From Anaerolineales bacterium (GTDB lineage: Bacteria > Chloroflexota > Anaerolineae > Anaerolineales > DRMV01): a stretch of DNA of 64,000 nucleotides. Under the pieces are notes generated by a model. That model was given only the letters and a program-made list of their open reading frames with translations, made no database searches and had not been told where the DNA came from. Both the position numbers and the translations under genes were made by a program. The stretch lies in the NCBI GenBank assembly GCA_027023425.1, contig JALVVL010000012.1, positions 68,285 through 132,284 on the forward strand, written 5' to 3'. Below are positions 2,441 to 59,002 of this stretch, piece by piece. Positions within the stretch are counted from its first letter, which is position 1; each line of letters opens with the position of its first letter.

Positions 2441-2668
2441 CTAATCTGTGGTTTCCTATCCACAGATTGACACAGATTTGCACCGATTGAGTAAGGAAAC
2501 CACAGAGGACACAGAAATTTACAGAGAACACAGAAAAATTTTTTCTTGGCGTCCTCTGTGTCCTTGGCGCCCTTGGCGTTAACCTCTGTGCTAATCTGTG
2601 TAATCTGTGGTTTTCTCTTTGCGTCCTCTGCGTTCTTGGCATCCTTGGCGTTAACTCCTTGGCGTTAT
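2441..2668 (-). repeat. Mosaic phased-repeat array L1 (reverse orientation)
   Basis: Read on the minus strand the module order is D-E-A-D-B-C. The outer end is C module 2458-2489 (ATCCACAGATTGACACAGATTTGCACCGATTG). The inner end (D units ACGCCAAGG) supplies the last codons and stop of the recombinase-like gene. Confidence 0.9.
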
Positions 2669-3571
2669 CTCATCCAGTCGTTGTAATTTTTGATACACCT
2701 CACGCCATTGCACTTTAGAAATGCCGAGTTTTTGGCGAATGTTGTTTGGCGGCATGCCGGCGCGCAAGTCTATCAGCGCTGCAGTCCACCGGCAAATGGA
2801 AAACGAAAGCCGGTGCTGGATGTTTGCGGCTTCGCCGAGGTCTTCAAGCACGTACTCCAGCAGGCGCGCCGTCCATGGAAAGAGGCGGTCGGTAAGCCGA
2901 TATTGCTGACGGTAGGCGTTGTAAATTTCTGCCCATTCTGCGGGCAGGGGGATTTTGCGCTCGCGATAGCGATGCTTTGGGCTGGGGTAGCGCACAAAGA
3001 GGTAAGGGGGGCTTTCTTCCAAGGCGAGGTGCTCTAAGTGGATGTTTACAGTTTCGCTTTTCTTGATTCCGGTGCTGAGTAGGAGCGAGGCCAGCGCGTA
3101 CGGGCGGGTATCGTGCGGCGGCTGTTTCCAAATTTTCTGCGCCGTTTGAAGCACGGCTTCTACCTCTTGCGGAGAAAGCACTTCGGGAAGGGGGCTGGTC
3201 ACCGAATGCTGTATTAGCCGCTCAGCAGGGTTGGTGAGTAGCACGCCGTTTTCAAAAAGCCACTTGAAGAACGATTTGAGGGAGGTGATGCGCCTCATGC
3301 AAGTTTTGGGTTTGCATGGCACGCCGCGCCCTTCCCGTACCCATTCCATGAAAGCGTTGAGGTGGTCGGTTGAAATGCGGTTGACGGGGTAGTCGGGCGG
3401 CAGGTATTTGGCGAGCAAGTTTAGGTCGCCGGTAAAGGCTTTGATGGTGTAGGGGGAATAGCCGCTGTCTTGCAGATAAACTTGCCATGCTTTGATAATC
3501 GGTGCGAGCGGCAAATTGCCGCTGATGTGCAAAGGAATTTGCTCTTTTTGGGATTGTGTGGTCTCGGGCAT
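2651..3571 (-). CDS. Tyrosine recombinase (XerC/D-phage integrase) family protein with apparently degenerate catalytic residues
   Basis: The track ORF is 2651-3670. I prefer the ATG at 3571, which sits 6 nt after AGGAGG. SAM-like core-binding region: YLQDSGYSPYTIKAFTGDLNLLAKYL...RRITSLKSFFKWL. Box I reads STGIKKSE (R to K). Box II reads SFSICRWTAAL (H to S; R and W kept). The tail LGISKVQWREVYQKL keeps the Tyr. Confidence 0.7.
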   Translation of the reverse strand: MPETTQSQKEQIPLHISGNLPLAPIIKAWQVYLQDSGYSPYTIKAFTGDLNLLAKYLPPDYPVNRISTDHLNAFMEWVREGRGVPCKPKTCMRRITSLKSFFKWLFENGVLLTNPAERLIQHSVTSPLPEVLSPQEVEAVLQTAQKIWKQPPHDTRPYALASLLLSTGIKKSETVNIHLEHLALEESPPYLFVRYPSPKHRYRERKIPLPAEWAEIYNAYRQQYRLTDRLFPWTARLLEYVLEDLGEAANIQHRLSFSICRWTAALIDLRAGMPPNNIRQKLGISKVQWREVYQKLQRLDEITPRS

Positions 3572-3599
3572 TTTACGCCTCCTGAGTTGCGCGTAGTGG

Positions 3600-3632
3600 T
3601 GCGTATAGTCACTGCGTATAGCCATTATAGCA
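3600..3632 (-). promoter_or_regulatory. Putative extended -10 promoter plus direct-repeat operator of the recombinase-like gene
   Basis: On the minus strand, TGCTATAAT (complement of 3624-3632) is followed by two copies of CTATACGCA (complement of 3600-3608 and 3613-3621, 13-bp spacing) before the RBS. Confidence 0.35.
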
Positions 3633-3676
3633 CAAACTTTGGTGGCGGGGGGGTATAATCTTTTCGGCAATTCAAG

Positions 3677-3899
3677 ACCGCAGAGGAAACCGCGAAATCT
3701 GCGGTTTCAGCAACCAAATCGGTGTAAATCTGTGTCAATCGGTGGATGAGCACGCCAAGGCCGCCAAGGGCACGGAGGACGCCAAGGATAAAAACCACAG
3801 ATTACACAGATTAGCACAGATTTTTTTGTGTTCTCTGTAAATTTCTGTGTCCTCTGTGTTTTTACTCCAATCGGTGTAAATCTGTGTCAATCGGTGGAT
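3677..3899 (+). repeat. Mosaic phased-repeat array L2 (forward)
   Basis: Module order F-C-D-A-B-C. The outer C module 3868-3899 (CAATCGGTGTAAATCTGTGTCAATCGGTGGAT) is a 30/32 inverted match to 2458-2489. Confidence 0.9.
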
Positions 3900-3928
3900 G
3901 GTAATGCCGTGCTCACAAGGAGGCTTGA

Positions 3929-4684
3929 ATGCCTGAGGTAACTCTCACTTTCCCTGCCGAGCATGTGGGCTTGATTGAAGTGGCGCGCCCGCAAGTTCTC
4001 AACGCCCTTTCCTGGGAGGCAATGGAGCAGTTTAGGGAACGGGTTGAAGAGGCGCTCGCCGCCGACCTGCGCGCATTGGTGGTTACGGGCGCGGGGCGGG
4101 CTTTCATCGCCGGCGGTGATTTGAAACAACTGGCCGATTACCCAACCGAAGCGGATGGCCGCAGGATGAGCGCGTTGATGACCCGCGCCCTCAACGCTTT
4201 GGAAGGGCTGCCTTTCCCGACCATCGCGGCGGTGAACGGGCCAGCGCGCGGCGGCGGCTCGGAGGTGGCGCTGGCTTGTGACCTGCGGGTGCTTTCCGCC
4301 GACGCTGACCTTGGCTTTGTGCAATCCCGCTGGTTTGTTACCCCGGGCTGGGGCATGGGACAGCGCCTGCTGAGGTTGGTGGGCTACGCGCGGGCATTGG
4401 ATTGGCTTCTCATGGGCAAGGTGCTCAGCGCCGATGAGGCCTACGAGCATGGCCTTGCCAACCGCGTTGTGCCCTCGGGTGAGGCAAAGTCGGAGGCGTT
4501 GAAATTGGCGCGCCAAATTGCCGAACTGCCGCCTGCGCTCACGCGCGCCATCAAAAGTATTTTGCGCGCCGGCATCACCTTGCCGCCCGCCACCGCCGCT
4601 ATGGTGGAACGGGAAGTCTTTCCCCCGCTATGGGCTTCGTCCGAACACATTGAAGCCGTGCTCCACTTTGCCCGCCGCCCTTAG
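3929..4684 (+). CDS. Enoyl-CoA hydratase/isomerase (crotonase) family protein
   Basis: LIEVARPQVLNALS...LVVTGAGRAFIAGGDLK...GGGSEVALACDLR is the crotonase fold signature. RBS AAGGAGG is upstream. Confidence 0.85.
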   Translation: MPEVTLTFPAEHVGLIEVARPQVLNALSWEAMEQFRERVEEALAADLRALVVTGAGRAFIAGGDLKQLADYPTEADGRRMSALMTRALNALEGLPFPTIAAVNGPARGGGSEVALACDLRVLSADADLGFVQSRWFVTPGWGMGQRLLRLVGYARALDWLLMGKVLSADEAYEHGLANRVVPSGEAKSEALKLARQIAELPPALTRAIKSILRAGITLPPATAAMVEREVFPPLWASSEHIEAVLHFARRP

Positions 4685-4706
4685 CCCCAATCCCTCAATC
4701 CCCCTT

Positions 4707-4735
4707 TTAACAATCCTCATACCTTTCTTTATCAT
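4707..4735 (+). promoter_or_regulatory. Putative sigma70-type promoter of hsp20
   Basis: TTAACA (4707-4712), 17 nt spacer, TATCAT (4730-4735). Confidence 0.4.
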
Positions 4736-4746
4736 TTTTCTTACAA

Positions 4747-4808
4747 ACACCTCCTATCCTATGCCATGAAAGGACATAAGACCACTGCCGTGAAGGAGGT
4801 GTGATATG
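4747..4808 (+). promoter_or_regulatory. Candidate RNA thermometer (anti-SD hairpin) in the hsp20 5' UTR
   Basis: ACACCTCCT (4747-4755) is perfectly complementary to AGGAGGTGT (4794-4802). The latter contains the Shine-Dalgarno 4 nt before the ATG at 4806. Confidence 0.35.
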
Positions 4809-5240
4809 ACAATCTATCGGTGGGATCCTTTCCGCAATGTTGAGCGGTTGATGGATGCGATGGACCGGCTGGTGGAAAGCAGTGTTGTGCCCATTGCAGG
4901 CGATGGTCGTGCTCAGGGTGTGCGCATTCCGCTCAATGTCAAGGCCGAAGAGGATGCTTTTGTGATAACAGCATGGGTGCCGGGCCTTGAAGCCGACGAT
5001 CTGCACATTGAGGTGTTGGAAGACACCGTTACGCTGGAAGGCGAATTCAAGGCGCCTGAGGGCGAAGGCTTGCTTTTGCAGGAAATTCCGGTTGGGCACT
5101 TCAAGCGTGTGCTGACCATGCCCACTCCGCTTGATCCCAGCAAGGCGCAGGCCGAACTGAAGAACGGTGTGCTCACCCTCACCTTGCCGAAGGCCGAGTC
5201 TGTCCGTCCGAAAGAAATCAAAGTGGTGGCTAAGAAATAG
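4806..5240 (+). CDS. Small heat-shock protein, Hsp20/alpha-crystallin family
   Basis: 144 aa. N-terminus MTIYRWDPFRNVERLMD, then an alpha-crystallin domain (VKAEEDAFVITAWVPGLEADDLHIEV...GVLTLTLPK). Confidence 0.9.
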   Translation: MTIYRWDPFRNVERLMDAMDRLVESSVVPIAGDGRAQGVRIPLNVKAEEDAFVITAWVPGLEADDLHIEVLEDTVTLEGEFKAPEGEGLLLQEIPVGHFKRVLTMPTPLDPSKAQAELKNGVLTLTLPKAESVRPKEIKVVAKK

Positions 5241-5262
5241 CGGCCGGATGGTCGCAAAGCCA

Positions 5263-5293
5263 CAAGCCCGCCAAGCGGCGGGCTTGTTTTTTT
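5263..5293 (+). terminator. Rho-independent terminator of hsp20
   Basis: CAAGCCCGCC-AAGC-GGCGGGCTTG followed by TTTTTTT. Confidence 0.85.
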
Positions 5294-5296
5294 GAG

Positions 5297-5723
5297 TAGG
5301 ACTTACGGAGTTGCCCGTAGAAGTGCGCGTTTCCATGTCATGGCGAGCCGCCGTAGGCGGCGAAGCCATCCCCCAGACAGTTTCAGGGGCGGACAGGGGT
5401 TTATCAAACCCCTGTCCTACCACCTCCAAAGGCGGAACAAGCGAAAAGTTGCACTTTTAGCGCCGAAAAAGTAATTTGGCAAAGTGAGGCGGCCGCCCGA
5501 ATTTTCCAATCTTATCGCTAATACTTGCTTTCTCGGAGGATGTTCTTATTGGAATGCGGCGACAAGTCACCGCTTTCCAAAGCGGTGCTGAGGCACCGCA
5601 CTCCAAAAAATGGTGTTTTCAGGGGCTGGTGTCCGCCCCTGAACCCAGACAGTGAGGGAGACCGCTTTGGCGGTCTACGACTGCCTCGCGGCGACATAAA
5701 GGAGGAGAACTGCGTAACTCCTA
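5297..5723 (+). mobile_element. MITE-like palindromic element H, copy 1 (interrupted by element K)
   Basis: Termini are TA-GGACTTACGGAGTT ... AACTGCGTAACTCC-TA, i.e. inverted repeats with flanking TA. It is collinear with the uninterrupted copy at 8351-8505 except for a 272-bp block. Confidence 0.75.
5382..5643 (+). mobile_element. 262-bp MITE-like element K nested inside H copy 1
   Basis: Perfect 13-bp terminal inverted repeats: TTCAGGGGCGGAC (5382-5394) and GTCCGCCCCTGAA (5631-5643). It is flanked by the 10-bp direct repeat CCCAGACAGT (5372-5381 and 5644-5653). The paralogous empty site is at 8425-8434. Confidence 0.8.
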
Positions 5724-5747
5724 ACATGATGACTGCGAGCATTTTGG

Positions 5748-7193
5748 ATGCTGAGTTATAATCACTCCATGGGCGAATGCGACCTTTTGCCGGAGCGCGT
5801 GGCCGCCTCTGCCGAGGAAATAGGCTTGCGGCGCGACGCCCTCATTTTGGTCGGGCTTTCTGGTGGGCCGGATAGCACTGCTTTGCTTGACGCTTTCCGC
5901 CGTTTGGGCTATTCTGTAGCGGCGGCGCACTACCATCACGGCTTGCGTGCGGAGGCGGACGCGGATGCCCGCGCCGCCGAGAACTTAGCCCGCAGGCTCG
6001 GCGTGCCCTTTGTACTGGGTAAAGCCGAGGACGAAGGCACGCCCATACCAAAAACTGGCACCGAAGAGGCCGCCCGCGAGCGCCGCTATCGCTTCCTCTT
6101 TTCCGCGGCGCGGCAACTAGGCGCTCGGGCTGTTGCCGTGGGGCACACCTACGACGACCGCGCTGAAACTGTGCTCATGCACATTATCCGCGGTACCGGC
6201 ATCCACGGCTTGGCCGCGTTGCGTCCTCGCGCTATCCTCCCGGGATGGGATGAAAACATCCCGCTGGTGCGTCCGCTGCTCGGCGTGCGCCGTGCTGAAA
6301 CGATTGCCTACTGCGCCTGCCGCGGCTTGCCCGTTCGCTGGGATTGGACAAATTGGCAACGGAAATACCTCCGCAACCGCGTGCGGCTTGATTTGCTACC
6401 GCGGCTCAGCAGTGAAAATCCGGCCATTGCCGAGGCACTCTGGCGCTTGGGCGAAGTTGCCGCGGCGGAAGACGAACTGCTGGAAAACTTAGCGCGGCGC
6501 GTGTTAGAAAAAACTGCCGTTCAGCAGGGCAAAGGCTACATCGGCTTGCGGCGGAGCGCTTTGCTCGCCGAGCCGCTTGCACTGCAACGGCGCACCCTCA
6601 AACTGGCGGCGAGGTTGCTTGGGGCAGAGGAGGTGCCTTTCAGCGCGATTGCCGACGCCCTGCGAGCCGCCCGTTCCACAAGCGGGCGCGCACGGCCGTG
6701 GTATGCTGGCGTTTTCCTGCTTGCGGAGGACGACGTGCTATGGCTAACGCGCTCGCCCGAAGCCTTGCCCGCTGAAGCCTTCCCGCAGATGCCCGCCGAG
6801 CGCCCCATCCCCCTACGCTTTGGCTCCAAAGTGGAATTGGCTAACGGTTGGGAATTTCGCCTTGGCGAGCCAGTGCCCCTTCCCCAGAATTGGCGCGAGC
6901 AAAGCGCCCCGCACAGCGTTTGGCTGGATGCAGATGCCTTCGTGCAACCGCTGATTTTGCGCCCGCCGCGCGTCGGCGACCGCATTGCCCCGCTTGGCAT
7001 GGGAGGCAGGTCGCAAAAAATTGGGGATGTGTTCACAAATGCCAAAATCCCGCTTCGCGCCCGCGGCCGCTGGCCTTTGCTGTGCGCGGGCGGTGAGGTG
7101 GTGTGGCTTCCCATGCTTCGCATCAGCGAGACGGCGCGGATCCGCCCTGCGACACGCTTGGCAGTGAAAGTAAGTGTACTAAAACGGGAGTGA
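5748..7193 (+). CDS. tilS: tRNA(Ile)-lysidine synthetase
   Basis: PP-loop LVGLSGGPDSTALL, central TilS domain, and a C-terminal TilS_C-like region (GRSQKIGDVFTNAKIP). The start codon is uncertain. Confidence 0.85.
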   Translation: MLSYNHSMGECDLLPERVAASAEEIGLRRDALILVGLSGGPDSTALLDAFRRLGYSVAAAHYHHGLRAEADADARAAENLARRLGVPFVLGKAEDEGTPIPKTGTEEAARERRYRFLFSAARQLGARAVAVGHTYDDRAETVLMHIIRGTGIHGLAALRPRAILPGWDENIPLVRPLLGVRRAETIAYCACRGLPVRWDWTNWQRKYLRNRVRLDLLPRLSSENPAIAEALWRLGEVAAAEDELLENLARRVLEKTAVQQGKGYIGLRRSALLAEPLALQRRTLKLAARLLGAEEVPFSAIADALRAARSTSGRARPWYAGVFLLAEDDVLWLTRSPEALPAEAFPQMPAERPIPLRFGSKVELANGWEFRLGEPVPLPQNWREQSAPHSVWLDADAFVQPLILRPPRVGDRIAPLGMGGRSQKIGDVFTNAKIPLRARGRWPLLCAGGEVVWLPMLRISETARIRPATRLAVKVSVLKRE

Positions 7194-7205
7194 GTGGAGG
7201 TTTGT

Positions 7206-7320
7206 GAGGCGTTAGGTCGTTGGGGCGTTAGGTCGTTGAGTCGTTGGGTCGTTAGGTCGTTGGGTCGTTGAGTCGTTGGGTCGTTGGGTCGTGAGTCGTT
7301 GGGTTGTTGCGTCGTAGTGG
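7206..7320 (-). repeat. Tandem 8-bp array (module G, reverse): about 14 units of GGTCGTTG / AGTCGTTG / GGTCGTTA
   Basis: Direct reading. It starts 13 nt after the tilS stop and is the complement of AACGACYY. Confidence 0.9.
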
Positions 7321-7670
7321 AGCAAAATTGCAAACCACAGAGAGCACAGAAATTTACAGAAAACACAGAAATTTTTTTCTTTGCGTCCTTTGCGCTTCTC
7401 CGTGCCTCTGCGTTACTCTTGGCGTCCTTCCGCAAATCCTAAATCGCTAATCTTCTCATCTGTGCTAATCTGTGTAATCTGTGGTTTTTATCCTTGGCGC
7501 CCTCTGCGCCTCTGCTTCCTCTGCGTCTCTGAGTTATCATCCACCGATTGACACAGATTTACACCGATTGGATTGTAAAACCGCAGATTTCACAGATTCC
7601 GCAGAAAAAAATCTGTGCTAATCTGTGTAATCTGTGGTTTTTATCCTTGGCGTCCTCTGCGTTACCATGG
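7206..7670 (-). repeat. Mosaic phased-repeat array L3 (reverse orientation)
   Basis: Read on the minus strand the module order is E-D-A-F-C-E-D-A-I-D-E-B-G. It ends 25 nt before the DUF47 gene start. Confidence 0.9.
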
Positions 7671-7695
7671 CAAAAACTTTCCACAGGAGCATACA

Positions 7696-8319: not shown

Positions 8320-8550
8320 GGAACCACAGATTACACAGATTTTACAGAAATAGGACTTACGCAGTTGCTCGTAGAAGCACTCGTTTTCATGTCATGGCGA
8401 GCCGCCGTAGGCGGCGAAGCCATCCCCCAGACGATGGGGGAGACCGCTTCGGCGGTCTACGACCGCCTCGCGGCGATATTGAGGAGAAGAACTGCGTAAC
8501 TCCTAAGAAAATTTGCGCAATTTGTGGTTTCTTCTTTGCGGTTTCTTTTT
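8320..8550 (+). repeat. Mosaic hairpin module L4 (A-like stub + F/B-like arm) split by H copy 2
   Basis: GAACCACAGATTACACAGATTTTACAGAAA (8320-8350) and AGAAAATTTGCGCAATTTGTGGTTTCTTCTTTGCGGTTTC (8506-8550) flank the H element. Confidence 0.7.
8351..8505 (+). mobile_element. MITE-like palindromic element H, copy 2 (intact, 155 bp)
   Basis: TA-GGACTTACGCAGTT ... AACTGCGTAACTCC-TA. Internal hairpins are ATGGCGAGCCGCC-GTAG-GCGGCGAAGCCAT and AGACCGC-TTCG-GCGGTCT. Confidence 0.8.
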
Positions 8551-8566
8551 GATTGGAGGCTTCGGA

Positions 8567-9538: not shown

Positions 9539-9539
9539 T

Positions 9540-9567
9540 GTAACCTTTTCGCCCCTGCCTGCGTCTA
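9540..9567 (+). promoter_or_regulatory. Putative ECF-type (autoregulated) promoter
   Basis: GTAACC (9540-9545), 16 nt spacer, CGTCTA (9562-9567). This matches the AAC...CGTC pattern typical of ECF sigma promoters and lies ~50 nt upstream of the sigma gene. Confidence 0.4.
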
Positions 9568-9617
9568 AAAACCAGAGCAGTAGAGGCGACCATCCTGCTC
9601 AAAAGCGGAGAGCAAAC

Positions 9618-10231: not shown

Positions 10232-11074
10232 ATGTTTAAGAAGGACCGCTCTTACGAAACCATGATTGCTGATTATTTGGATAACCTGCTGCCCGATGAC
10301 CTCAAGGCGAAATTTGAAAAGCGCCTGAAAGAGTCGCCTGCCCTTCGCAAAGCGGTGGATGAAATGCGCGCTTTGCGTGAAAAAGCAAAAGAGGCAACCG
10401 AGGGTGTGCTTTCGCCCGAGGCTAAGTTGCGGCTTTACGAGCGTTTGAACGAGGAGCGGGCACGTCGGGGCGAGGCCTTGCTCAAAATTCCGCAGGAATT
10501 GCTGGCGCTGGCAAAGGCAAAGGCTGCCGCGGCGGGTGATGCCGCCGCAGAAGTGGCAGGCGCGGGCGCAGACGCTTTCCGCACGGCCGCCAAAGGTGGT
10601 GCGAAAACAGCCGAAACCGCCGCTCGCAGCGTCGCCGAAACGGCAAAGCGGCTTGGCGATGCCGGTAAGGCCGTGGTGGAAGGAGGCTCGGAGATGGCGC
10701 GCGCCGGTCTTGAGACCGCTGCGGACGTCGCCTCAACATTGTCGGAAAGCGCAGAAGTGGTGAAAGATGTGGCGGATAGCCCGGTGAAAGGTGCGGTGAC
10801 TGCTCCACCCAAAATTGCGGGAAAAATGGCTAAGGCCGGTTTTCAGACAGCCAAGGGCATGGCTAAAACCGGCGCAAAGGCCGCCCAAACGGGGATCAAA
10901 GCCGCTGCTGAAACCGGTAAGGCTGCTGCTGAGGCCGCCAAAGGTACTTCTAAAACTACTGCCGAGGCCGTAAAAGCCGCTGCTGAAACGGCAAAGGCCA
11001 GCGCAGGCGTGCTGTCCGCGGCTGTAAAGGGCGCTAAAAAGGTGGCGAAAGCAAAGGATGAGGAGGAAGACTGA
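10232..11074 (+). CDS. Anti-sigma-factor-like protein with Ala/Lys/Thr/Glu-rich low-complexity C-terminus
   Basis: It lies immediately downstream of the ECF sigma gene. The N-terminus MIADYLDNLLPDDLKAKFEKRLKESPALRKAVDEMRAL resembles anti-sigma N-domains but has no Cys/His zinc ligands. I see no hydrophobic TM segment. Confidence 0.5.
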   Translation: MFKKDRSYETMIADYLDNLLPDDLKAKFEKRLKESPALRKAVDEMRALREKAKEATEGVLSPEAKLRLYERLNEERARRGEALLKIPQELLALAKAKAAAAGDAAAEVAGAGADAFRTAAKGGAKTAETAARSVAETAKRLGDAGKAVVEGGSEMARAGLETAADVASTLSESAEVVKDVADSPVKGAVTAPPKIAGKMAKAGFQTAKGMAKTGAKAAQTGIKAAAETGKAAAEAAKGTSKTTAEAVKAAAETAKASAGVLSAAVKGAKKVAKAKDEEED

Positions 11075-11547
11075 CAATCGGTGGATGAGAACCACAGATT
11101 ACACAGATTAGCGCAGATTTTTTCTGTGTTCTCTGCAAATTTCTGTGTTCTCTGTGGTTGTCTTTTTCAATCGGTGCAAATCTGTGCCAATCGGTGGATG
11201 ATAACTCAGAGACGTAGAGGAAACAGAGGCGCAGAGCGCAAAGAGGTTGACGCCAAGGTCGCCAAGATGACGCCAAGGTCGCCAAGAAAAAAATTTCTGT
11301 GTTCTCTGTAAATTTCTGTGTCTTCTGTGGTTTTCTTTTTTCAATCGGTGTAAATCTGTGTCAATCGGTGGATGATAACTCAGAGACGTAGAGGAAACAG
11401 AGGCGCAGAGCGCAAAGAGGTTGACGCCAAGGTCGCCAAGATGATGCCAAGGTCGCCAAGAAAAAAATTTCTGTGTTCTCTGTAAATTTCTGTGTCTTCT
11501 GTGGTTTTCTTTTTTCAATCGGTGTAAATCTGTGTCAATCGGTGGAT
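11075..11547 (+). repeat. Mosaic phased-repeat array L5 (forward), includes a near-identical 174/175-bp tandem duplication
   Basis: Module order c-A-B-C-E-D-B-C-E-D-B-C. C modules start at 11168, 11342 and 11517. The array begins at the first base after the anti-sigma stop. Confidence 0.9.
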
Positions 11548-11574
11548 AATAACCTACCATGCCGGCGCGCTGAT

Positions 11575-13701: not shown

Positions 13702-14116
13702 GCGCCAAGGGTAACGCAGAGGCGCAGAGGAAACGGAGATGCAGAGACGCTGAAGGAAACCACAGATTACACAGATTAGCACAGATTTTTCTGCGGAATC
13801 TGCGGTTTCAGCAGCCAAATCGCTGTAAATCTGTGTCAATCGGTGGATAAGGACGCCAAGGACGCCAAGGGACGCAAAGGACGCCAAGAAAGTAACGCAG
13901 AGGCGCAAAGAAGCGCAAAGGACGCAAAGAGAAGTTTTTCTGTGTTCTCTGCAAGTTTCTGTGTTTTCTGTGGCTTGTGGCGTCGCTCCACCTACGACGC
14001 AACGACCCAACGACCCAACGACCCAACGACCTAACGACTCAACGACTCAACGACTCAACGCCCCAATCCCTCAGTACCTCAATCCTTCTCTTTCTGTGTT
14101 CTCTATGGTTTTCTGC
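13702..14116 (+). repeat. Mosaic phased-repeat array L6 (forward)
   Basis: Module order D-E-A-F-C-D-E-B-G, then CAATCCCTCAGTACCTCAATCC and a B-like stub. Confidence 0.9.
13993..14066 (+). repeat. Tandem 8-bp array (module G, forward): about 9 units of AACGACCC / AACGACCT / AACGACTC
   Basis: Direct reading; unit starts at 14001, 14009, 14017, 14025, 14033 and onward. Confidence 0.9.
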
Positions 14117-33898: not shown

Positions 33899-34735
33899 TG
33901 AATCTGTGGATGATACCAAGGACGCCAAGGACAAAAACCACAGATTACACAGATTAGCACAGAGGAGAAGATTAGCGATTTAGGATTTGCGGATCTTCCC
34001 TGAAATTGGTGAGAATCTGTGTCAATCGGCGGATGAAACAAACTACAGAGATTACGAAGATTAGCGCAGATTTTTTCTGTGTTCTCTGTAAATTTCTGTG
34101 TTCTCTGTGGTTTTCTCCTTCAATCGGTGCAAATCTGTGTCAATCGGTGGATAGGGACGCCAAGGTCGCCAAGGACACGAAGGGTGCCAAGGGTAACGCA
34201 AAGACGCAGAGGAAACAGAGGCGCAGAGGACACAAAGAAAAAGCCACAGATTACACAGATTGGCACAGATTTTTCTGCGGAATCTGCGAAATCTGCGGTT
34301 TCAATCATCCAATCGGTGTAAATCTGTGTCAATCGGTGGATAGGGACGCCAAGGTCGCCAAGGGTAACGCAAAGACGCAGAGGAAACAGAGGCGCAGAGG
34401 ACGCAAAGAAAAGAACACGGATTACACAGATTGGCACAGATTTTTCTGCGGAATCTGCGAAATCTGCGGTTTCAATCATCCAATCGGTGTGAATCTGTGT
34501 CAATCGGTGGATAGGGACGCCAAGGTCGCCAAGGACACGAAGGGTGCCAAGGGTAACGCAAGGGCGCAGAGGAAACAGAGGCGCAGAGGACACAAAGAAA
34601 AGAACACGGATTACACAGATTGGCACAGATTTTTCTGCGGAATCTGCGAAATCTGCGGTTTCAATCATCCAATCGGTGTAAATCTGTGTCAATCGGTGGA
34701 TGTTTTTCTGCGTAATCTGTGGTTTCTCCTCGCCG
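33899..34735 (+). repeat. Mosaic phased-repeat array L7 (forward), largest locus, with three tandem D-E-A-F-C units
   Basis: Module order c-D-A-I-c-a-B-C-[D-E-A-F-C]x3-B stub. C modules lie at 34121, 34310, 34481 and 34670, giving periods of 189, 171 and 189 bp. The short unit lacks exactly two 9-bp D units. Confidence 0.92.
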
Positions 34736-41826: not shown

Positions 41827-41830
41827 TTAA

Positions 41831-41905
41831 CCTGACACTGTAGCACTTGACACTGTAACACTTGACACTGTAACACCTGACACCGCAACACCTGACACCC
41901 TAACC
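41831..41905 (+). repeat. Tandem 15-bp repeat x5 (CYTGACACYGTAACA), each unit carrying a TTGACA/CTGACA hexamer
   Basis: Units lie at 41831, 41846, 41861, 41876 and 41891, between the sirtuin stop (41826) and the L,D-transpeptidase start (41915). Confidence 0.9.
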
Positions 41906-51820: not shown

Positions 51821-51837
51821 GGGCTTTTTGGAGGTGG

Positions 51838-52172
51838 AAAAAACCACAGATTACACAGATTAGCACAGATTTTTTCTGTGCAATCTGCGAAATCTGCGGT
51901 TTCGGTCATTCAATCGGTGAAAATCTGTGTCAATCGGTGGATAGGGACGCCAAGGGCGCCAAGGACACGAAGGACGCCAAGAAAGCAACGCAGAGGCGCA
52001 GAGAGCGCAAAGGAAAAAATTTCTGTGTTTTCTGTGGTGTTTCTGTGTCCTCTGTGTTTTTTTCTTCAATCGGTGCAAATCTGTGTCAATCAGTGGATAA
52101 GCAACGCCCGACTTCACGACCCACCGACCCACGACGCAACGACTAACGACTCAACGACCTAACGCCCCACGA
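51838..52172 (+). repeat. Mosaic phased-repeat array L8 (forward)
   Basis: Module order A-F-C-D-E-B-C-G. The G end overlaps the 3' end of the ccmD-like ORF on the opposite strand. Confidence 0.9.
52101..52172 (+). repeat. Tandem 8-bp array (module G, forward, degenerate)
   Basis: GCAACGCCCGACTTCACGACCCACCGACCCACGACGCAACGACTAACGACTCAACGACCTAACGCCCCACGACC. Confidence 0.8.
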
Positions 52173-52321: not shown

Positions 52322-52330
52322 GGAGACCTC

Positions 52331-53697: not shown

Positions 53698-54434
53698 CTC
53701 TCCGCCTCCGCCGAAGCAAGCGCCCCGCGGTAAAAATCTAGCAATTCGGCGTCGGAAATTTCGCCGCGCCCCGCCGAAGCCGCGATTTTCCCGCGCGCCA
53801 GCACATCAAACCGCGAAGCCAGCAGTGCGGCTTTGCTCAAATCGTGCGAAGTGAGCACCACCGTGCGCTTTTGGGTTGAAACGCGCGCCAAAATCTCATC
53901 CAGCATCGCTGCGGCATCTTGGTCAAGCCCCGTGTAAGGCTCATCCAAAAGCAACACATCGGGGTCGGGAAGCAGGGCGCGGGCGATTGCTAAGCGCTGT
54001 TGCATCCCGCGGGAATAGGTGCGCACCAAATCTCGGCGATGGCGGTACATGCCCACCATTTTCAACACCGCCGCAATGCGCTCATTGGCATCGGGCAGGG
54101 AATAGAGGCGGGCGTAAAAGCGCAAATTTTCTTCGCCGCTTAGGTCGCCGTAAAGCAAAGGCTGGTGCGAAACAAACCCTAAGCGCCTGCGCACTGCCGT
54201 CGCCTGCTGGGGCAAGCGATGCCCCTTCACGCGCACATCGCCGGCACTGGGGCGGCTCAGCGAAGCCAAAATGCGCAAAAAAGTGGTCTTGCCCGCGCCG
54301 TTTGGTCCGAGCAAGGCCACAAATTCGCCCTCCTCGGCCTGAAAATCCATGCCTTTGAGCACGGTTTTTATGCCAAAGCGCTTCACCAAGCCACGCACGG
54401 CAATAACCGGGGCGCTTGAAGGCGTTGTGGTCAT
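53694..54434 (-). CDS. ccmA: Cytochrome c biogenesis ABC ATPase CcmA
   Basis: GPNGAGKTT, YSRGMQQRLAIA and LLLDEPYTGLD. Confidence 0.85.
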   Translation of the reverse strand: MTTTPSSAPVIAVRGLVKRFGIKTVLKGMDFQAEEGEFVALLGPNGAGKTTFLRILASLSRPSAGDVRVKGHRLPQQATAVRRRLGFVSHQPLLYGDLSGEENLRFYARLYSLPDANERIAAVLKMVGMYRHRRDLVRTYSRGMQQRLAIARALLPDPDVLLLDEPYTGLDQDAAAMLDEILARVSTQKRTVVLTSHDLSKAALLASRFDVLARGKIAASAGRGEISDAELLDFYRGALASAEAER

Positions 54435-56311
54435 TCCGCCTGCTCCTCTCCGACATCCAGCAGAGCCTTCAAGCGGGCTTTGAGTTCGGCGCGGCGCTTG
54501 TGGTATGCCTCTTCGTCTAATTTGCCCTGCTTGTAAAGGTCATCAAGTGCGAGGATGGCATCCATCAGCATTTCGGGGTTTTCGTATTCGGCGGAAGGGG
54601 CTTCCTCCGCCGCGGCGAGCCGGTTGCGGCGGGTGAGCACCACAGCCGCCACAATCAGCGCTATCCCAAGCGCAACCAATCCCAAAGCAAGGTTGCGGCG
54701 CGCCCCCGTGGGCATTTTCAACCCTTTCTTGGCGCGGCTGAGGCTAAATTGCAAACTCTCTCCTTGCTTGATGGGCGGTGTGATGTAGATGTGGTAATTG
54801 TTGCCCTGCTCATCCCTTTGCACGCCGTTATCCTGAAGCAAGTCGCCGCGGATGTTGACCTCGCCTTCCGGCGCCATCAGCACTGCTGAATCCACGGGCA
54901 AGGGGAATGAATGCGAAATTTTTACGGTTTTGCCCTCGGCAGGCAAAATGTAGCCAAACACCTCTTGCATTTGGGATTGGGCATAAATCGGCGCAGTGTC
55001 GCCGAAGCCGCTGTCGGTTTGGATGTAGCGATTTTTGAAATTCCCGCTCTGGAATTGGAGGTGGGTTGCGCCGGCGGGCAGTTCAAAGGAAAGGACCGGT
55101 TCGCCTTTCTTCTCGGCTACCACAGTTTTATCGCCGTTGTTGGCAATGAGGTACATCTCAATGATTTGGTAGGCGTTTTCGCCCGCGGGTTCAATGAAGA
55201 AATGCAAGCGCTCAATCTTCAGGGCGCTTTTATCGGTTGTGCTTTCGTAAATCACAAGCGGAAGGTCTAAAGTGGAGGTATCGTGCTGGCGCACAATGGC
55301 ATGTGAGCCGTAAGTTACCCCTTCGTAGGTGGTGCTCACAAAAAATAGCCTACTGGGGGAATTGGGCACATTTTCAAACCTAAATTTGCCGTTTTCATCG
55401 GCTTTTGTTTTCAAGTCCACCACTTTGTTGGGGTTGCTGGCGGCATCATCATAGCCCTGTAATTCCACCTCTATGCCGGGGGGCACTTTGGCGTTTGCCG
55501 TGCCGTTGGTGACGGTGCCGGTTATGGTTATCGTAGCGCCCGCGGGTGTGCCCGAAGGTGTTTGCCCGGGGGCGGGTTGTGTGCCTGATGCCGTTGGGGT
55601 TGCGTTTTGGGACTGTTCGGCTTCTGCACCAAGTGCCTCTTGGCGGGCAAATGAGAGCATTCGGATGTAGGAAGCCAGCGCGAGCCGGTCTTCTTTGCTC
55701 AAGCCGCTGTAAACGTCGGTAGGATGCTGTTTGCCAGTAATGGCGTTGGCAATTTCCTCATCCGAAAGGTTTGCCATGCGCTTTTGGTCGGTGAGGTTTT
55801 TGCCCTTGCCATCTTTGCCGTGGCAGGCAACGCAACGCTGGGCGTAGAGGCTTTTGCCTTTTTCCAGTTTCTGAGGCGAAACGCTGAAGGTGTAAACATA
55901 AGCAAGCACATCCCAGCGCTGGCGCTCGGTTAGTTTGCCCGCGAAGGGAGGCATCCCATCCTCTTCCTTACCGTGGGTGAGCACCAAAAAGCGCTTGATG
56001 GGAGCGTCCTCTTGCACTTCTTCGGCGGAAGCCAGCGCTGCGGGTGTAATGCCTAACTCCGCCGCTTTAGGTCCATCGCCCATCGCCCGCGGCCCGTGGC
56101 ACTGCTCGCATTCCTGCTGGTAAATTTGCTCACCGATTACGGGGTCGGGTGGAATTGCAGGGTAAAGGTTGGCGGTGTTGGGCGTAGGCGGCGCGGCGGT
56201 CGGATGCCAGCCGGGCGGCGGCGTAATATCTGCCGCGAGGTTAAATCCGCACGCAGTGGTGGTTAGAGCAAGCAAAATGAGCACGAGAATGATGACAAAA
56301 CTTCTACGCAT
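54431..56311 (-). CDS. Lipoprotein dihaem c-type cytochrome fused to a beta-rich ectodomain, a TM helix and a CcmI-like cytoplasmic helix
   Basis: Lipobox TTACG. CEQCH and CVACH. A CarboxypepD_reg-like segment ITGTVTNGTANAKVPPGIEVELQG...NGKFRFENVP. TM segment LALGLVALGIALIVAAVVL. Tail LDDLYKQGKLDEEAYHKRRAELKARL. The stop overlaps the ccmA start. Confidence 0.65.
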   Translation of the reverse strand: MRRSFVIILVLILLALTTTACGFNLAADITPPPGWHPTAAPPTPNTANLYPAIPPDPVIGEQIYQQECEQCHGPRAMGDGPKAAELGITPAALASAEEVQEDAPIKRFLVLTHGKEEDGMPPFAGKLTERQRWDVLAYVYTFSVSPQKLEKGKSLYAQRCVACHGKDGKGKNLTDQKRMANLSDEEIANAITGKQHPTDVYSGLSKEDRLALASYIRMLSFARQEALGAEAEQSQNATPTASGTQPAPGQTPSGTPAGATITITGTVTNGTANAKVPPGIEVELQGYDDAASNPNKVVDLKTKADENGKFRFENVPNSPSRLFFVSTTYEGVTYGSHAIVRQHDTSTLDLPLVIYESTTDKSALKIERLHFFIEPAGENAYQIIEMYLIANNGDKTVVAEKKGEPVLSFELPAGATHLQFQSGNFKNRYIQTDSGFGDTAPIYAQSQMQEVFGYILPAEGKTVKISHSFPLPVDSAVLMAPEGEVNIRGDLLQDNGVQRDEQGNNYHIYITPPIKQGESLQFSLSRAKKGLKMPTGARRNLALGLVALGIALIVAAVVLTRRNRLAAAEEAPSAEYENPEMLMDAILALDDLYKQGKLDEEAYHKRRAELKARLKALLDVGEEQAE

Positions 56312-56334
56312 AATAACCTCGGCGAGGAAAGTGA

Positions 56335-56390
56335 TTCAGTGTTTCAGTGTTTCGGTGTTCCAGTGTTCCAGTGTTCCGGTGTTCCAGTGA
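56335..56390. repeat. Tandem 8-bp array x7 (TYCRGTGT)
   Basis: The units in order are TTCAGTGT, TTCAGTGT, TTCGGTGT, TCCAGTGT, TCCAGTGT, TCCGGTGT and TCCAGTGA. The array lies 24-80 nt upstream (minus sense) of the dihaem cytochrome start. Confidence 0.9.
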
Positions 56391-56420
56391 TACAGCGTAC
56401 TCGGCAATCTCCAGAGTTCC

Positions 56421-56482
56421 AATTCCTTAATCCCTTAATCCCTGATTCCTAATTCCTGATTCCTCATTGCCCTCATTCCCTC
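56421..56482. repeat. Tandem 7-9-bp array x8 (AATCCCTN / ATTCCTN)
   Basis: AATTCCTT AATCCCTT AATCCCTG ATTCCTA ATTCCTG ATTCCTC ATTGCCCTC ATTCCCTC. The minus sense reads as repeated GAGGGAAT/AGGAAT. It overlaps the last 3 codons and stop of the 56473-56976 gene. Confidence 0.9.
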
Positions 56483-56976
56483 AACCTCGCACCGCAGCGG
56501 GGGCAGTAGCGGTCGGTTTTGAGGACTGGTGCGCCGCAATGAGGGCAAAATCCGCCTGCTTCGGCTTCGCGCTGGCGCTTGCGCTCGGCGAGCAGGGCTT
56601 CAATTTCGTCATCGGCAACCACCGGGCGACGCACGGCGCGCTCAGCACGTCGCTTGCGGATAAGTTCTTCTAAATTGTCGGATTTAGCCGCTTTGCCGCG
56701 CAAAGCGTCAAGTTCTCGCAAAATCTCAGCGCCGCGCCGCAAAAGTTCCGCGCGGCGCGCTTGGTAAGCGGCTTCGTCCATTTTTCCCATTTCATAGTCA
56801 AAATCTAACTCGGCGATGGCGTCCAAGACCTCCTCGCGCTCGGCCAAAAGCGCCGAAACGCGGCGGTCGCCTGCCGTGGTCAAAGCGTATTTTTCCGGCT
56901 CCAGCAAAGGCCAAGCGACAAACAAGCCGCTCAACAGCGCTAAAGCGAGCACAAACAAAACAGAACCCCAATCCAT
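56473..56976 (-). CDS. CcmI-like N-terminal module fused to a C-terminal zinc ribbon
   Basis: TM segment WGSVLFVLALALLSGLFVAWPLL. Then ELDFDYEMGKMDEAAYQARRAELLRR, which recalls the CcmI cytoplasmic loop. The C-terminus is CPHCGAPVLKTDRYCPRCGARL. Confidence 0.5.
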   Translation of the reverse strand: MDWGSVLFVLALALLSGLFVAWPLLEPEKYALTTAGDRRVSALLAEREEVLDAIAELDFDYEMGKMDEAAYQARRAELLRRGAEILRELDALRGKAAKSDNLEELIRKRRAERAVRRPVVADDEIEALLAERKRQREAEAGGFCPHCGAPVLKTDRYCPRCGARLRE

Positions 56977-56977
56977 T

Positions 56978-57550
56978 TCACTTCTCCAATGCGAGGGAAA
57001 GGGCGCTTAGGATTTCTTGGAGGCTTTGGAAGGGACCGATTTTCTTGTAAGCCAGCCGCCCGTTCCGATCAACAATGTAAGTTTCGGGCACACCGCGCAG
57101 GTGAAAGGTCTGCGCCCAGCGGGTTGCCTTATCCGGCCCGTTTGGGTAAGTGATGCCGTATTTTTTGATGTAAGCGAGCGCGTCGGGGTCGGTATCCACG
57201 TAATCCAAGCCCAAAAAGACCACATCGCCGCGGTCTTTGTACTGCTCCCAAGCCTGCTCCAGCATCACCGCTTCGTCCTTGCAGGTGTTGCACCACGAAG
57301 CCCAGAAGTTTATCAGCACCACTTTGCCGCGCAGGTCGCCCAAGCGGTAGGTGTGCCCTGAAAAATCGGTCATGGTGAGGTCGGGAGGCACTTTGCCGCC
57401 GATGGCAATGCCGCCGCGTTGGGTTTTCACCAATGCAATGCCAATGATCGCGAGCAGGACTAAAAAGCCCCCCCAGACCAAAATTTTGCCCCAAGGCACG
57501 CGCTTGGCGGCTTCGGGCTGTTGGGGTTCCGATTGCGGCAAATCTGACAT
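56978..57550 (-). CDS. ccmG: Thiol:disulfide oxidoreductase, CcmG/DsbE/ResA (TlpA) family
   Basis: TM anchor. Thioredoxin motif FWASWCNTCKDE. GVPETYIVDRNG. Confidence 0.85.
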   Translation of the reverse strand: MSDLPQSEPQQPEAAKRVPWGKILVWGGFLVLLAIIGIALVKTQRGGIAIGGKVPPDLTMTDFSGHTYRLGDLRGKVVLINFWASWCNTCKDEAVMLEQAWEQYKDRGDVVFLGLDYVDTDPDALAYIKKYGITYPNGPDKATRWAQTFHLRGVPETYIVDRNGRLAYKKIGPFQSLQEILSALSLALEK

Positions 57551-57657
57551 GGGTTACCTCCGAGTTCGGCGTCTACGCGAGTGTGGGAGCAATATGCCAT
57601 CTTGGGCTTGTCTTTCCCAAAAGTCGCCGTAGGGCGACTTTGCAGAGAGAGTAGGTG

Positions 57658-57933
57658 CAGTTTCAACTGCCGCCGCTTGCGCCCGGGAGCACTGAAGAGG
57701 TGTTGAAACAGGTACTCACAAGTGTAGAAGCCTCATCCAGCCCTCACCCCACTTTGGCTCGCTGCGCTCGCCGTTTCTCCCCTCTCCCAGCGGGAGAGGG
57801 GAGAAGGCTGCCGTTAGGCGGTTTGAGGGGTGAGAGCGGAGCAAGGCGTTTCTCAACAACCTTTTAGTGCTCCCTTGCGCCCTGCGACTGAAGTCACGGG
57901 CTACAAGTTGCGAAGTCCGCCTGCGTGGATTTT
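57658..57933. repeat. Composite palindromic element(s) in the ccmH-ccmG gap
   Basis: Arms TTGCGCCCGGGAGCACTGAAGAGGTGTTGAAAC (about 57676-57710) and GTTTCTCAACAACCTTTTAGTGCTCCCTTGCGCC (about 57848-57881) are inverted. The central hairpin is TCTCCCCTCTCCC-AGC-GGGAGAGGGGAGA (57776-57804). It is followed by GACTGAAGTC..CGAAGTCCGCCTGCGTGGA. Confidence 0.7.
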
Positions 57934-58028
57934 TGCTCGCACCGCGCCGAAGTGTTTACTCTCGCCTACAGGACAGGTAGGCAGTTACCCAAATTCGGCG
58001 TAAAGCGCCGGCTGGGGTTGCAAAAATC

Positions 58029-58568
58029 CTACCGCCGCGAGCGGAGTTCCTCTTCTAACTTTCGCAGGTACTCATCCTCTTCGGGCTGAGGCGGGGAAGG
58101 CGTTGCGCCCGCGGTGCTTTCGCCTGCGTGGGCTTTGCGCGGCTTGTACCACGCCTTGAGCGAGCGGTAAAGCAAATATAGCCCTGCCAAAATCGCCAGC
58201 GGCGGCACAACGTAGGCCAGCCACCAAAAGCCCTTGCGCGGCGGAGCGGCTAAGACGCGCGCACCGTAGCGCTCAACAAAATACTGCTGAATTTGCTCCT
58301 TTGTCCAGCCCTGTTGCAGTTGCTGGCGGATGAGTTCGCGCCATTGCGCGCAGGCTTTAGTGCCGCACACATCCAACGGCGTGTTTTCGCACACGGGACA
58401 ATAGAGCGTGTGGGCGATTGCGTTGACCTGATCATCGGTGATAACCGGCGTGGCGGTAGGCGCAGGCGAACCGGCAACCGCCGAGAACGACGGCAACGCC
58501 GCCGCGGCTAACGCCACCACTACGGCGGCAAATAAAACCCAAAATTGCCAGCGTTTGAAGGAGTGCAT
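58029..58568 (-). CDS. ccmH: Cytochrome c-type biogenesis protein CcmH/NrfF
   Basis: Signal peptide. LYCPVCENTPLDVC...AQWRELIRQQLQQGWTKEQIQQYFVERYG. A C-terminal TM helix. Confidence 0.85.
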   Translation of the reverse strand: MHSFKRWQFWVLFAAVVVALAAAALPSFSAVAGSPAPTATPVITDDQVNAIAHTLYCPVCENTPLDVCGTKACAQWRELIRQQLQQGWTKEQIQQYFVERYGARVLAAPPRKGFWWLAYVVPPLAILAGLYLLYRSLKAWYKPRKAHAGESTAGATPSPPQPEEDEYLRKLEEELRSRR

Positions 58569-58604
58569 TGTTTTCTCCTACGGTAGGGCAAGTTCGCGTA
58601 TACT

Positions 58605-59002
58605 CACACGGAGAACACGGAGGGCACAGAGAGAAAACCACAGATTACACAGATTGCACAGATTTTTTCTGCAGAGTCTGCGAAATCTGCGGTTTAAACC
58701 ATCCAATCGGTGAAAATCTGTGTCAATCGGTGGATAGTAACGCAGAGACGCAGAGGGAACAGAGGCGCAGAGAGCGCAAAGAAGGGACGCCAAGGGCGCC
58801 AAGGATAAAAACCACAGATTACACAGATTAGCACAGATTTTCCGCGGAATCTGCGAAATCTGCGGTTTCAACCTTTCAATCGGTGAAAATCTGTGTCAAT
58901 CGGTGGACAAAAACCACAGATTACACAGATTTTTTCTGTGGAATCTGCGAAATCTGTGGTCTTGGCAACCAAATCGGTGAAAATCTGTGTCAATCTGTGG
59001 AT
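58605..59002 (+). repeat. Mosaic phased-repeat array L9 (forward)
   Basis: Module order e-A-F-C-E-D-A-F-C-A-F-C. It fills the ccmF-ccmH intercistronic gap. Confidence 0.9.

Follow-up and report, generated by a model that had tools for sequence, protein, structure and literature searches.

Mosaic 8-mer arrays in an Anaerolineales genome may be gene-less arms of a widespread small palindromic element linked to a nuclease gene

Why are nine gaps of one bacterial genome segment filled with shuffled combinations of the same short tandem repeats? We examined a 64,000-nucleotide (nt) stretch of an Anaerolineales bacterium (contig JALVVL010000012.1, positions 68,285 to 132,284; hereafter the window), for which an annotation made from the sequence alone (the original prediction) had described nine intergenic arrays of modules (A to G and I) built from one phased 8-mer, AATCKGYG. 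We read the sequence of all nine loci and found their content and coordinates as described (Table 1). Our favoured explanation, which we consider somewhat probable, is that gene-less copies of the terminal arms of widespread small palindromic selfish elements have accumulated to form the arrays. In other bacteria, such arms flank genes of the GxxExxY nuclease-like family (Pfam PF13366).

We observed that the triple pattern AATCKGYG-N1-2-AATCKGYG-N1-2-AATCKGYG matched the window 23 times, compared to 0.00 matches in 100 dinucleotide-preserving shuffles. The most frequent 8-mer in the window was AATCTGTG/CACAGATT (n = 63), and 112 of 122 AATCKGYG units fell within the nine loci. Together the loci span 3,605 bp, or 5.6% of the window, slightly above the ~3.4 kb and ~5% first estimated. 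Module order and spacing of every array were taken from a unit-level parse, which reproduced the predicted spacings, the A-F-C core of nine copies of one 8-mer in two orientations, and the orders C-D-E-A-F (34121-34701) and C-E-D-B (11168-11547). The mosaic architecture, likened in the prediction to bacterial interspersed mosaic elements (BIMEs), is real. That one 8-mer underlies the whole system was true of modules A, F and C (GATT type) only; B and E (AGAG type), D (CAAGG type) and G (8-mer linkers) consist of other units that have in common only a C-R-C start and a period of 8-10 bp. GATT-type units were spaced at 9 bp 23 times and at 10 bp 42 times, with C modules strictly 10/10; spacing was 8-9 bp for AGAG-type units, 9 bp for CAAGG-type units and 8 bp for G units. 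C modules have the outer end GGAT (GGAC once). In arrays 2 and 5-9, module A is oriented towards F and C; arrays 1 and 3 show the corresponding pairing of the reverse complements.

A European Nucleotide Archive (ENA) metagenome scaffold contains the whole window unchanged, and the same arrays were present at 98-100% identity in contigs of four ENA metagenome assemblies, three NCBI metagenome-assembled genomes (MAGs) and one Logan assembly. The arrays are therefore not an assembly artefact, a concern that the prediction had raised; fragmented assemblies end at them. The comparison of strains that it had suggested showed polymorphism: strains ~99% identical differ by whole modules gained or lost in arrays 1 and 6. 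Array 1 is ~190 bp longer in one strain (L338; L numbers denote loci), and in another (L002) a different module replaces the F-C-D segment of array 6 and the copy number of G differs. Tandem Repeats Finder recovered every sub-array. It also recovered higher-order repeats of 174 bp at 11121-11553 (2.5 copies, 96% identity) and of 171-189 bp at 34121-34701 (~3 copies, 86-91% identity), the marks of recent tandem duplication.

All nine loci are intergenic as predicted, except that the open reading frame (ORF) of a tyrosine recombinase, 2651-3571(-), ends inside the first; its last four codons and stop codon derive from array 1 (2651-2668). The arrays occupy gaps between divergent, convergent and co-directional gene pairs alike. 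In relatives with 82-84% amino-acid identity, TilS and PhoU_div overlap at stop and start (TAATG), whereas in the window they are separated by 490 bp with array 3. Similarly, ccmF and ccmH lie 15-19 bp apart in relatives (73-79% amino-acid identity) and 448 bp apart, with array 9, in the window. Because these two orthologous sites are empty in relatives, the arrays represent insertions specific to this lineage, placed at tight operon junctions, and not regulatory DNA of ancestral origin.

The system is not peculiar to its source genome and belongs to a pan-bacterial family. Scans with the triple pattern returned at least 120 stretches from IMG/VR, drawn from many metagenomes, and at least 120 from one genome per GTDB species. 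The motif occurs in more than 15 phyla among the matches listed, which include Verrucomicrobiota, Planctomycetota, Acidobacteriota, several Chloroflexota classes, Nitrospirota, Desulfobacterota, Armatimonadota, Gemmatimonadota, NC10, WOR-3, Lentisphaerota (Oligosphaera ethanolica), Cyanobacteria, Bacteroidota, and Alpha-, Beta- and Gammaproteobacteria (Asticcacaulis biprosthecium C19, Polaromonas, Thiosymbion). BLAST against plasmids added Bacteroides finegoldii, Segatella copri and Persicobacter, where CCACAGATTACACAGATTnnCACAGATT faces its own complement between convergent genes. Copies from unrelated bacteria keep both the spacing of 9-10 bp and the number three; the loss of phasing that the prediction had named as grounds for its refutation was not seen. 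When the IMG/VR matches listed were aligned on the third unit, the pattern-free positions that follow it were conserved (G 83%, A 81%, T 52%), so the module ends in ...AATCTGYGGAT. The core module is thus AATCTGYG plus 1-2 nt, three times, then GGAT, and its usual inverted partner is ATCCRCAGATT x3.

The usual form of the family is an inverted pair: TTATCC[GA]CAGATT x3, 1-134 bp of any sequence, and AATCTG[CT]G x3 followed by GGATAA, with arm-to-arm distances continuous over that range. The flanks of paired elements extend the palindrome (TTATCC...GGATAA). In 58 of 122 non-redundant genome matches listed, a partner arm lies no more than 150 bp upstream, and in another 11 no more than 600 bp; the downstream control direction gave 13. 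Four of the 11 more distant partners were at 422-439 bp. Solo arms made up 53 of the 122 (43%). Partner units covary at their R/Y positions (Watson-Crick in 69 of 96 cases; P = 7e-4, Fisher test), and the 1-2 nt spacers between units were complementary in 24 of 64 cases. What is conserved is the 8-mer and not a continuous helix. Runs that resemble E (GCAGAGG), B (CCTCTGTG), D (GACGCCAAG) and the 8-mers of G also adjoin the triple in unrelated phyla; elsewhere the D type (L335, L199) and the E/B type (L262, L159, L213, L143) form inner or outer arms. ORFs ending at right arms were clustered in search of a recurrent neighbour gene, and no family recurs.

At the gathering threshold and at E <= 1, Rfam returned two tRNAs and two chance-level matches only for the whole window. 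In the literature searched, 17-mers of the motif were absent and 11-mers occurred only in unrelated primers. Both results agree with the prediction, which had found no known feature type that fits. A presumed likeness of AATCGYGGATCA to helix h43 of 16S rRNA was dropped as probably coincidental. One 24.5-kb phage contig with a Mu F-like head protein (IMGVR_UViG_3300047508_000082; L061, L010, L030) holds seven hairpin copies, four of which (L061) follow consecutive genes, three of them 9-15 nt past the stop codon. Five IMG/VR matches (L027, L043, L097, L099, L102) are long homogeneous runs, e.g. repeated AATCTGTGG in a giant-virus MAG; these have neither the GGAT end nor the three-unit limit and are probably unrelated simple or coding repeats.

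The prediction had named no gene linked to the repeats. We observed that genes of the GxxExxY family carry such arms as flanks. On a Thiosymbion contig, two arms bracket a 129-residue ORF that belongs to GxxExxY (NCBIfam TIGR04256; PDDEXK_3, Pfam PF13366), and the same layout of arms, gene and arms recurs in four further motif-selected loci. The gene is present in only about five of 120 motif-selected genome loci, and gene-less pairs are far commoner. We also assembled a motif-blind sample of GxxExxY loci chosen by protein only (3 from IMG/VR and 80 from metagenomes). Among the 80, upstream and downstream flanks were inverted-complementary beyond all 20 shuffles in 53 of the 73 loci with both flanks (median score 35, compared to 15.7 in shuffles). 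In alignment, the arms are three tandem 8-10-mers starting C-R-C, and the right arm begins around the stop codon; the consensus C-terminus NLRESA is encoded by AATCTGCGnGAATCTGCG. Three or more C-R-C units were found at 45 of 61 GxxExxY genes, where fewer than 0.1 per locus are expected by chance (estimated from pattern degeneracy). Cassettes have a median arm of 35 bp, an arm-to-arm length of 422-439 bp and a gene of ~390 bp.

Arm types at GxxExxY genes were GATT (22), GAAT (11), GAAA (6), GATG/A (5) and CAAG (1), the last being the D module of the window. The nearest protein neighbour had the same arm type in 27 of 34 cases (11.4 expected; maximum 24 in 1,000 draws). In the unselected flanks, CRCNGATT units were spaced at 9 bp 83 times and at 10 bp 30 times, and their runs were of three (42, the mode), two (29) or, once, five units. 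The helical phasing originally proposed is loose: the family-wide spacing of mostly 9 bp is well short of 10.5 bp per turn.

GxxExxY homologues comprise at least 7,972 proteins at E <= 1e-10. The protein had no sequence match in the PDB. Its AlphaFold2 model (mean predicted local distance difference test score, pLDDT, 91.6) matched best the folds of Cas4 SSO0001 (E = 4e-5, template modelling score, TM, 0.61), lambda exonuclease/LHK-Exo, MGME1 and the AddAB/AdnAB nuclease domains. The alignment shows no variation at E27, D67, K79, Q91 and Y95 and almost none at E77; these residues presumably correspond to RecB-family motifs, including QxxxY. Judged from this model, the protein looks like an intact and active minimal RecB/Cas4-like PD-(D/E)XK nuclease. 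The literature that we searched for GxxExxY, PDDEXK_3 and PF13366 mentions the family, which is uncharacterised there, and none of the mentions concerns its genomic context.

Three GxxExxY loci deserve separate mention. In a Planctomycetaceae MAG contig (L178, 1-620, minus strand), a cassette directly follows an avd gene of the diversity-generating retroelement (DGR) type (bAvd-like, PF22296); at a related avd locus (L343), a DGR reverse transcriptase stands at the cassette position. The L178 cassette appears to be inserted inside a diversity-generating retroelement. We rejected the bAvd-like four-helix-bundle gene as a second cargo: L178 is the single case, and its relatives (L343) are armless. 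A 2.4-kb stretch of Candidatus Thiosymbion oneisti (L205, 1500-3900) contains, in alternation, arms, a solo ATCCGCAGATT, a ribbon-helix-helix (RHH)-PIN toxin-antitoxin pair and a GxxExxY gene, a cassette-array-like layout with arms as separators. A supposed GxxExxY paralogue, P0138, was tried for defining element ends and set aside, as it proved to be no second copy but the one locus in other strains.

On the reading that we favour, the complete unit, seen in other bacteria and not in the window, consists of a left arm, a GxxExxY gene of ~390 bp and an inverted right arm. The left arm is three tandem 8-10-mers starting C-R-C, most commonly TTATCC[GA]CAGATT-n-C[GA]CAGATT-n-C[GA]CAGATT; the right arm is AATCTG[CT]G x3 then GGATAA, beginning at the stop codon. 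Gene-less short versions, as hairpin-shaped inverted pairs or solo arms, are far commoner. In the source lineage, gene-less arms of the GATT, AGAG, CAAGG and 8-mer-linker types would have landed between genes, even inside tight operons, and the mosaics would have grown by further insertion beside or into one another and by unequal recombination between modules. The triple 8-mers may be protein-recognition sites at the element ends, three per end, comparable to multi-site transposon ends. The nuclease or a partner protein may act on the arms as DNA, for example by a break followed by repair copying, as in homing. Transcribed arm pairs would form a stem that RNase III could cut, as in the intervening sequences (IVSs) of 23S rRNA, which would make insertions inside operons tolerable.

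More tentatively, the whole may be an undescribed, bacteria-wide mobile element: a RecB/Cas4-like nuclease gene framed by 3 + 3 phased 8-mer recognition sites, with gene-less derivatives spread through chromosomes and phages, with 23S rRNA IVSs as a special case, and expanded here to mosaics that make up ~5% of the DNA. We could not find a description of the repeat grammar or of the nuclease link in the literature searched. The tyrosine recombinase at 2651-3571, which is flanked by inverted arrays with outer C modules, was considered as the element enzyme and rejected. It had no tblastn homologue in 1.1 Mb of motif-bearing and related loci, and it is syntenic with PhoU_div in array-less relatives (L252, L253), therefore behaving as a housekeeping Xer-like gene.

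Several observations weigh against the selfish-element explanation. Recognisable arms were lacking at 16 of 61 GxxExxY genes. A hidden Markov model (HMM) from 61 members detected no GxxExxY gene or remnant in six frames of the window (E <= 10) and none in ~20 kb more of the same genome (L337-L340; E <= 1), so the link within the source organism is by arm similarity only. Inspection of 76 paired elements revealed neither flanking direct repeats indicative of target-site duplication nor another transposition scar. No polymorphism for a new insertion could be resolved to the nucleotide; relatives whose sites are empty are too diverged. Integrating DNA is beyond a nuclease of 125 residues acting alone. 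The gene might merely home into pre-existing hairpins, and shared host ancestry could explain why arm type covaries with the protein. Finally, in all three arrays between co-directional genes (four hairpins), the A/F hairpins contain G.U, not A.C, on the sense strand, which hints at an RNA-level role.

That sense-strand preference belongs to a broader case in which paired modules would act as RNA hairpins, for termination or attenuation, for 3'-end stabilisation as with repetitive extragenic palindromic (REP) sequences, or for RNase III cistron separation as in 23S IVSs and phage T7 intercistronic sites. Array folds beat shuffles on both strands (z = -4.4 to -6.2, array 7 included), the phage contig has a hairpin after four consecutive genes, and the stem of the Coxiella IVS, of the same layout, is cut by RNase III (PMC4990558). 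We nevertheless consider an RNA-level element unlikely. Selection at the RNA level was assessed by two strand tests and supported by neither: in other genomes, the more stable strand was the sense strand in 19 cases and not in 12 (not significant), and arm mismatches of GxxExxY cassettes, where the sense strand is known, showed no wobble bias (36 G.U-type, 57 A.C-type, 160 transversions). A promoter and terminator scan of array 7 found a weak TTGACA-N17-GATGAT within rc-C only and no terminators, and the arrays lack terminator-like T-tracts. Arrays are as frequent in divergent promoter gaps as they are downstream of genes, and the lack of an Rfam match also counts against an RNA element. The absence of wobble bias, the non-significant strand match, the mostly non-complementary spacers and the 43% of arms without a partner together point to recognition of the units at the DNA level.

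Recognition of DNA could also be the business of the host. Here the modules would be an architectural or regulatory array with three sites each for a cooperative protein, a nucleoid-associated protein or an AbrB/MraZ-like candidate for GTG-containing repeats ~10 bp apart, kept for chromosome organisation or regulation. The conservation of 8-mers with free spacers, the three units at 9-10 bp across phyla and the frequency of solo arms would fit, and array 6 lies upstream of tRNA-Pro and mraZ; MraZ itself binds three direct repeats of 10-bp period. We judge this improbable. The arrays are absent at orthologous sites in relatives (73-84% amino-acid identity), differ between strains ~99% identical and split translationally coupled genes. 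The family occurs in phages and flanks a horizontally transferred nuclease gene. The dominant 9-bp spacing implies a drift of ~50 degrees per unit on B-DNA, and Pfam scans of 20 window proteins revealed no linked gene for a candidate binding protein.

A comparably low probability attaches to the reading that the arms are pre-existing target sites, belonging to the host or to an independent repeat, that GxxExxY is a parasite of the homing-endonuclease type, and that the window arrays are unrelated to the nuclease and spread by another route. Small PD-(D/E)XK homing endonucleases exist, e.g. I-Ssp6803I, and I-Bth0305I was a weak fold match of our model (rank 49). The gene is always central in a palindromic arm pair, and gene-less pairs vastly outnumber filled ones. 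Target-site homing leaves the dispersal of the arms unexplained; the covariation of arm type with protein fits either reading. Free-standing PD-(D/E)XK homing endonuclease genes do resemble the cassettes by analogy, with a small nuclease gene in the middle of a (pseudo)palindrome, uninterrupted sites elsewhere and presence in phages. The cassettes differ from them in that the putative sites are multi-copy repeats and that the closest folds are of the exonuclease type (Cas4, lambda exonuclease).

Clusters of DnaA boxes titrating the initiator, as at datA, are very improbable: although the outer unit and flank, TTATCC[AG]CA, come near the box TTATCCACA, TTATCC[AG]CAGATT is frequent as an outer end in other phyla and the window has 25 box-like 9-mers (<=1 mismatch; 6.6 expected), only six of the 25 lie within arrays, window C modules mostly end ATCCACC, inner units match only six of nine box positions, the G variant breaks the conserved A7, and the other module types, the nuclease link and the insertions are left unexplained.

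Among known systems, 23S rRNA IVSs are like the GxxExxY cassettes in being small palindromic units with terminal inverted repeats of ~28-30 bp around a small ORF. The IVS of Coxiella burnetii is 428 nt long and has terminal inverted repeats of 28 bp; its loop encloses a small ORF, and near its 5' end GACAGAT occurs three times in tandem, with a copy number that varies between strains (PMC4990558). The length of 428 nt compares with the 422-439 bp of the cassettes, the window itself having arms only, and the three GACAGAT repeats compare with CACAGATT x3 in the arms. Both the IVSs and the arm family have gene-less hairpin versions and a sporadic horizontal distribution. The two differ in that the IVS repeats are one-sided 7-mers (PMC4990558), whereas the arm units are 8-mers with 1-2 nt spacers in both arms. 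The ORF of the IVS encodes a four-helix-bundle S23p protein and that of the cassette a PD-(D/E)XK nuclease. IVSs sit in fixed 23S rRNA helices (9, 25 or 45), unlike the window arrays, which lie between protein or tRNA genes with no rRNA in the window. We know of no mosaic arrays for 23S IVSs.

REP/BIME sequences, and the REP doublets with their REP-associated tyrosine transposases (REPIN-RAYT; PMC3116915), resemble the arrays as high-copy intergenic palindromes in alternating-orientation mosaics with linker motifs. In REPIN-RAYT systems as in the arm family, the mobile form is likely an inverted doublet, repeats flank a single-copy gene, and strains are polymorphic. The sequences are unrelated: REPs have a GTAG tetranucleotide and arms the ends ATCC...GGAT, and a REP is one palindrome of 20-40 nt, whereas an arm is three tandem 8-mers. 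RAYTs are Y1 HUH transposases, unlike the RecB/Cas4-like nuclease of the arm-flanked gene, and the scans of the 20 window proteins found no Y1 transposase. REPs are species-specific, and the arm unit is common to many phyla. On the more tentative reading above, the gene-less derivatives would be a nuclease-driven counterpart of REPIN-RAYT.

Similar to miniature inverted-repeat transposable elements (MITEs) and transposon ends (Mu L1-3/R1-3, Tn7), arms are terminal inverted repeats around a variable interior, and gene-less forms outnumber full ones; Mu/Tn7-type ends likewise have three directly repeated sites per end, inverted between ends. Unlike these elements, arms have no target-site duplication and no DDE or integrase-type gene between them (we found no transposase between arms), their units are only 8 bp long, and solo arms and mixed-type arrays are common. 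Cyanobacterial short tandemly repeated repetitive (STRR) heptamer arrays and small dispersed Nostoc repeats were reportedly described by Mazel in 1990 and Elhai in 2008. They are like the window in their intergenic tandem arrays of 7-8-mers (compare the G module and the arrays at 41830 and 56337), in their short nested units and in that the enzyme is not known. STRRs differ from arms in sequence and period and form long homogeneous runs, not inverted triplets; they are not known to be linked to a nuclease gene. We rejected a clustered regularly interspaced short palindromic repeats (CRISPR) array, as the window units are 8 bp with 1-2 nt spacers in both orientations and not 23-50 bp repeats with unique spacers. 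An integron attC array (R''/R' sites, IntI) was rejected as well: the element ends read ATCC/GGAT, the arrays are dispersed between housekeeping genes, and the recombinase is Xer-like.

REPs, BIMEs, IVSs and STRRs have been known for decades, and for most of them the enzyme and the mode of movement are not. Here a repeat grammar conserved in more than 15 phyla among the matches listed (three C-R-C 8-mers, 9-10 bp apart, in inverted pairs), the very large uncharacterised protein family GxxExxY/PF13366 and the layout of the 23S IVS come together. For genome annotation, the arrays account for short-read assembly breaks at these loci and for 450-bp inserts in tight operons (TilS-PhoU_div, ccmF-ccmH), and the motif gives a simple signature for masking and cataloguing such repeats.

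Table 1. Module content and position of the nine arrays (window coordinates; rc, reverse complement)
Array	Coordinates	Orientation	Modules	Position
1	2441-2668	reversed	solo AATCTGTGG; rc-C 2461-2488; rc-B 2501-2540; rc-D; rc-A 2593-2609; rc-E/D	between Xer-like recombinase gene stop and ABC-ATPase gene start
2	3677-3899		F'; C 3717-3744; D 3752-3788; A 3796-3822; B; C 3869-3896, then GGAT	between divergent recombinase and enoyl-CoA hydratase genes; final C 30 nt before hydratase ATG
3	7206-7670	reversed	G (CGTTGGGT x13) 7210-7315; rc-B; rc-E/D; rc-A; rc-E; rc-C 7542-7569; rc-F 7581-7605; rc-A 7610-7636; rc-D/E	TilS/PhoU_div junction, 490-bp gap
4	8320-8550		partial A 8325-8341; unrelated 155-bp dispersed repeat 8351-8505; TTTGCGGTTTCTT x2.3 8521-8551	
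5	11075-11547		C unit + GGAT; A 11093-11119; B; C; (E-D-B-C) x2 (= 174-bp repeat)	between convergent genes; begins 1 nt past stop of gene 10232-11074
6	13702-14116		E; A 13761-13787; F; C 13817-13845; D; E; B; G (ACGACCCA x9) 13994-14066	between NrfH-like cytochrome gene and tRNA-Pro-mraZ promoter region
7 (largest)	33899-34735		degenerate A/C/I 33899-34120; (C-D-E-A-F) x3 + C 34121-34701, unit 171-189 bp	between divergent 5'-nucleotidase and aminotransferase genes
8	51838-52172		A 51845-51871; F; C 51912-51939; D; E; B; C; G	between convergent histidine-kinase and ccmC-like genes
9	58605-59002		E-like; A; F; C; E; D; A; F; C; A; F; C	between ccmF and ccmH, both minus strand, 448-bp gap

Pfam scans identified flanking genes that include those for an ABC transporter, the Xer-like tyrosine recombinase, enoyl-CoA hydratase, TilS, PhoU_div, an extracytoplasmic function (ECF) sigma factor, multihaem cytochromes, the mraZ-mur cluster, a histidine kinase and ccm proteins. 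The window also holds other repeats. The 155-bp segment of array 4, which is not made of 8-mer modules, contains GC-rich hairpins, e.g. GGCGAGCCGCCGTAGGCGGCGAAGCC, and has a 95% identical copy elsewhere in the source genome (L339 2176-2329). An unrelated palindrome-rich element of ~450 bp (57600-57990) fills the gap between ccmH and the AhpC/TSA gene, which is 33-72 bp in relatives. Pieces of it recur at L337 13568-13699 and at L339 47-214 and 2555-2612, which makes it another dispersed repeat family of the source genome. Intergenic tandem arrays of ACCTGACACTGTAAC (x4.6), CAGTGTTC (x6.6) and TTCCTAA-type 7-mers lie at 41830-41898, 56337-56389 and 56417-56483; these may be linker-type relatives of the G module, and the length of the CAGTGTTC array differs in strain L339.

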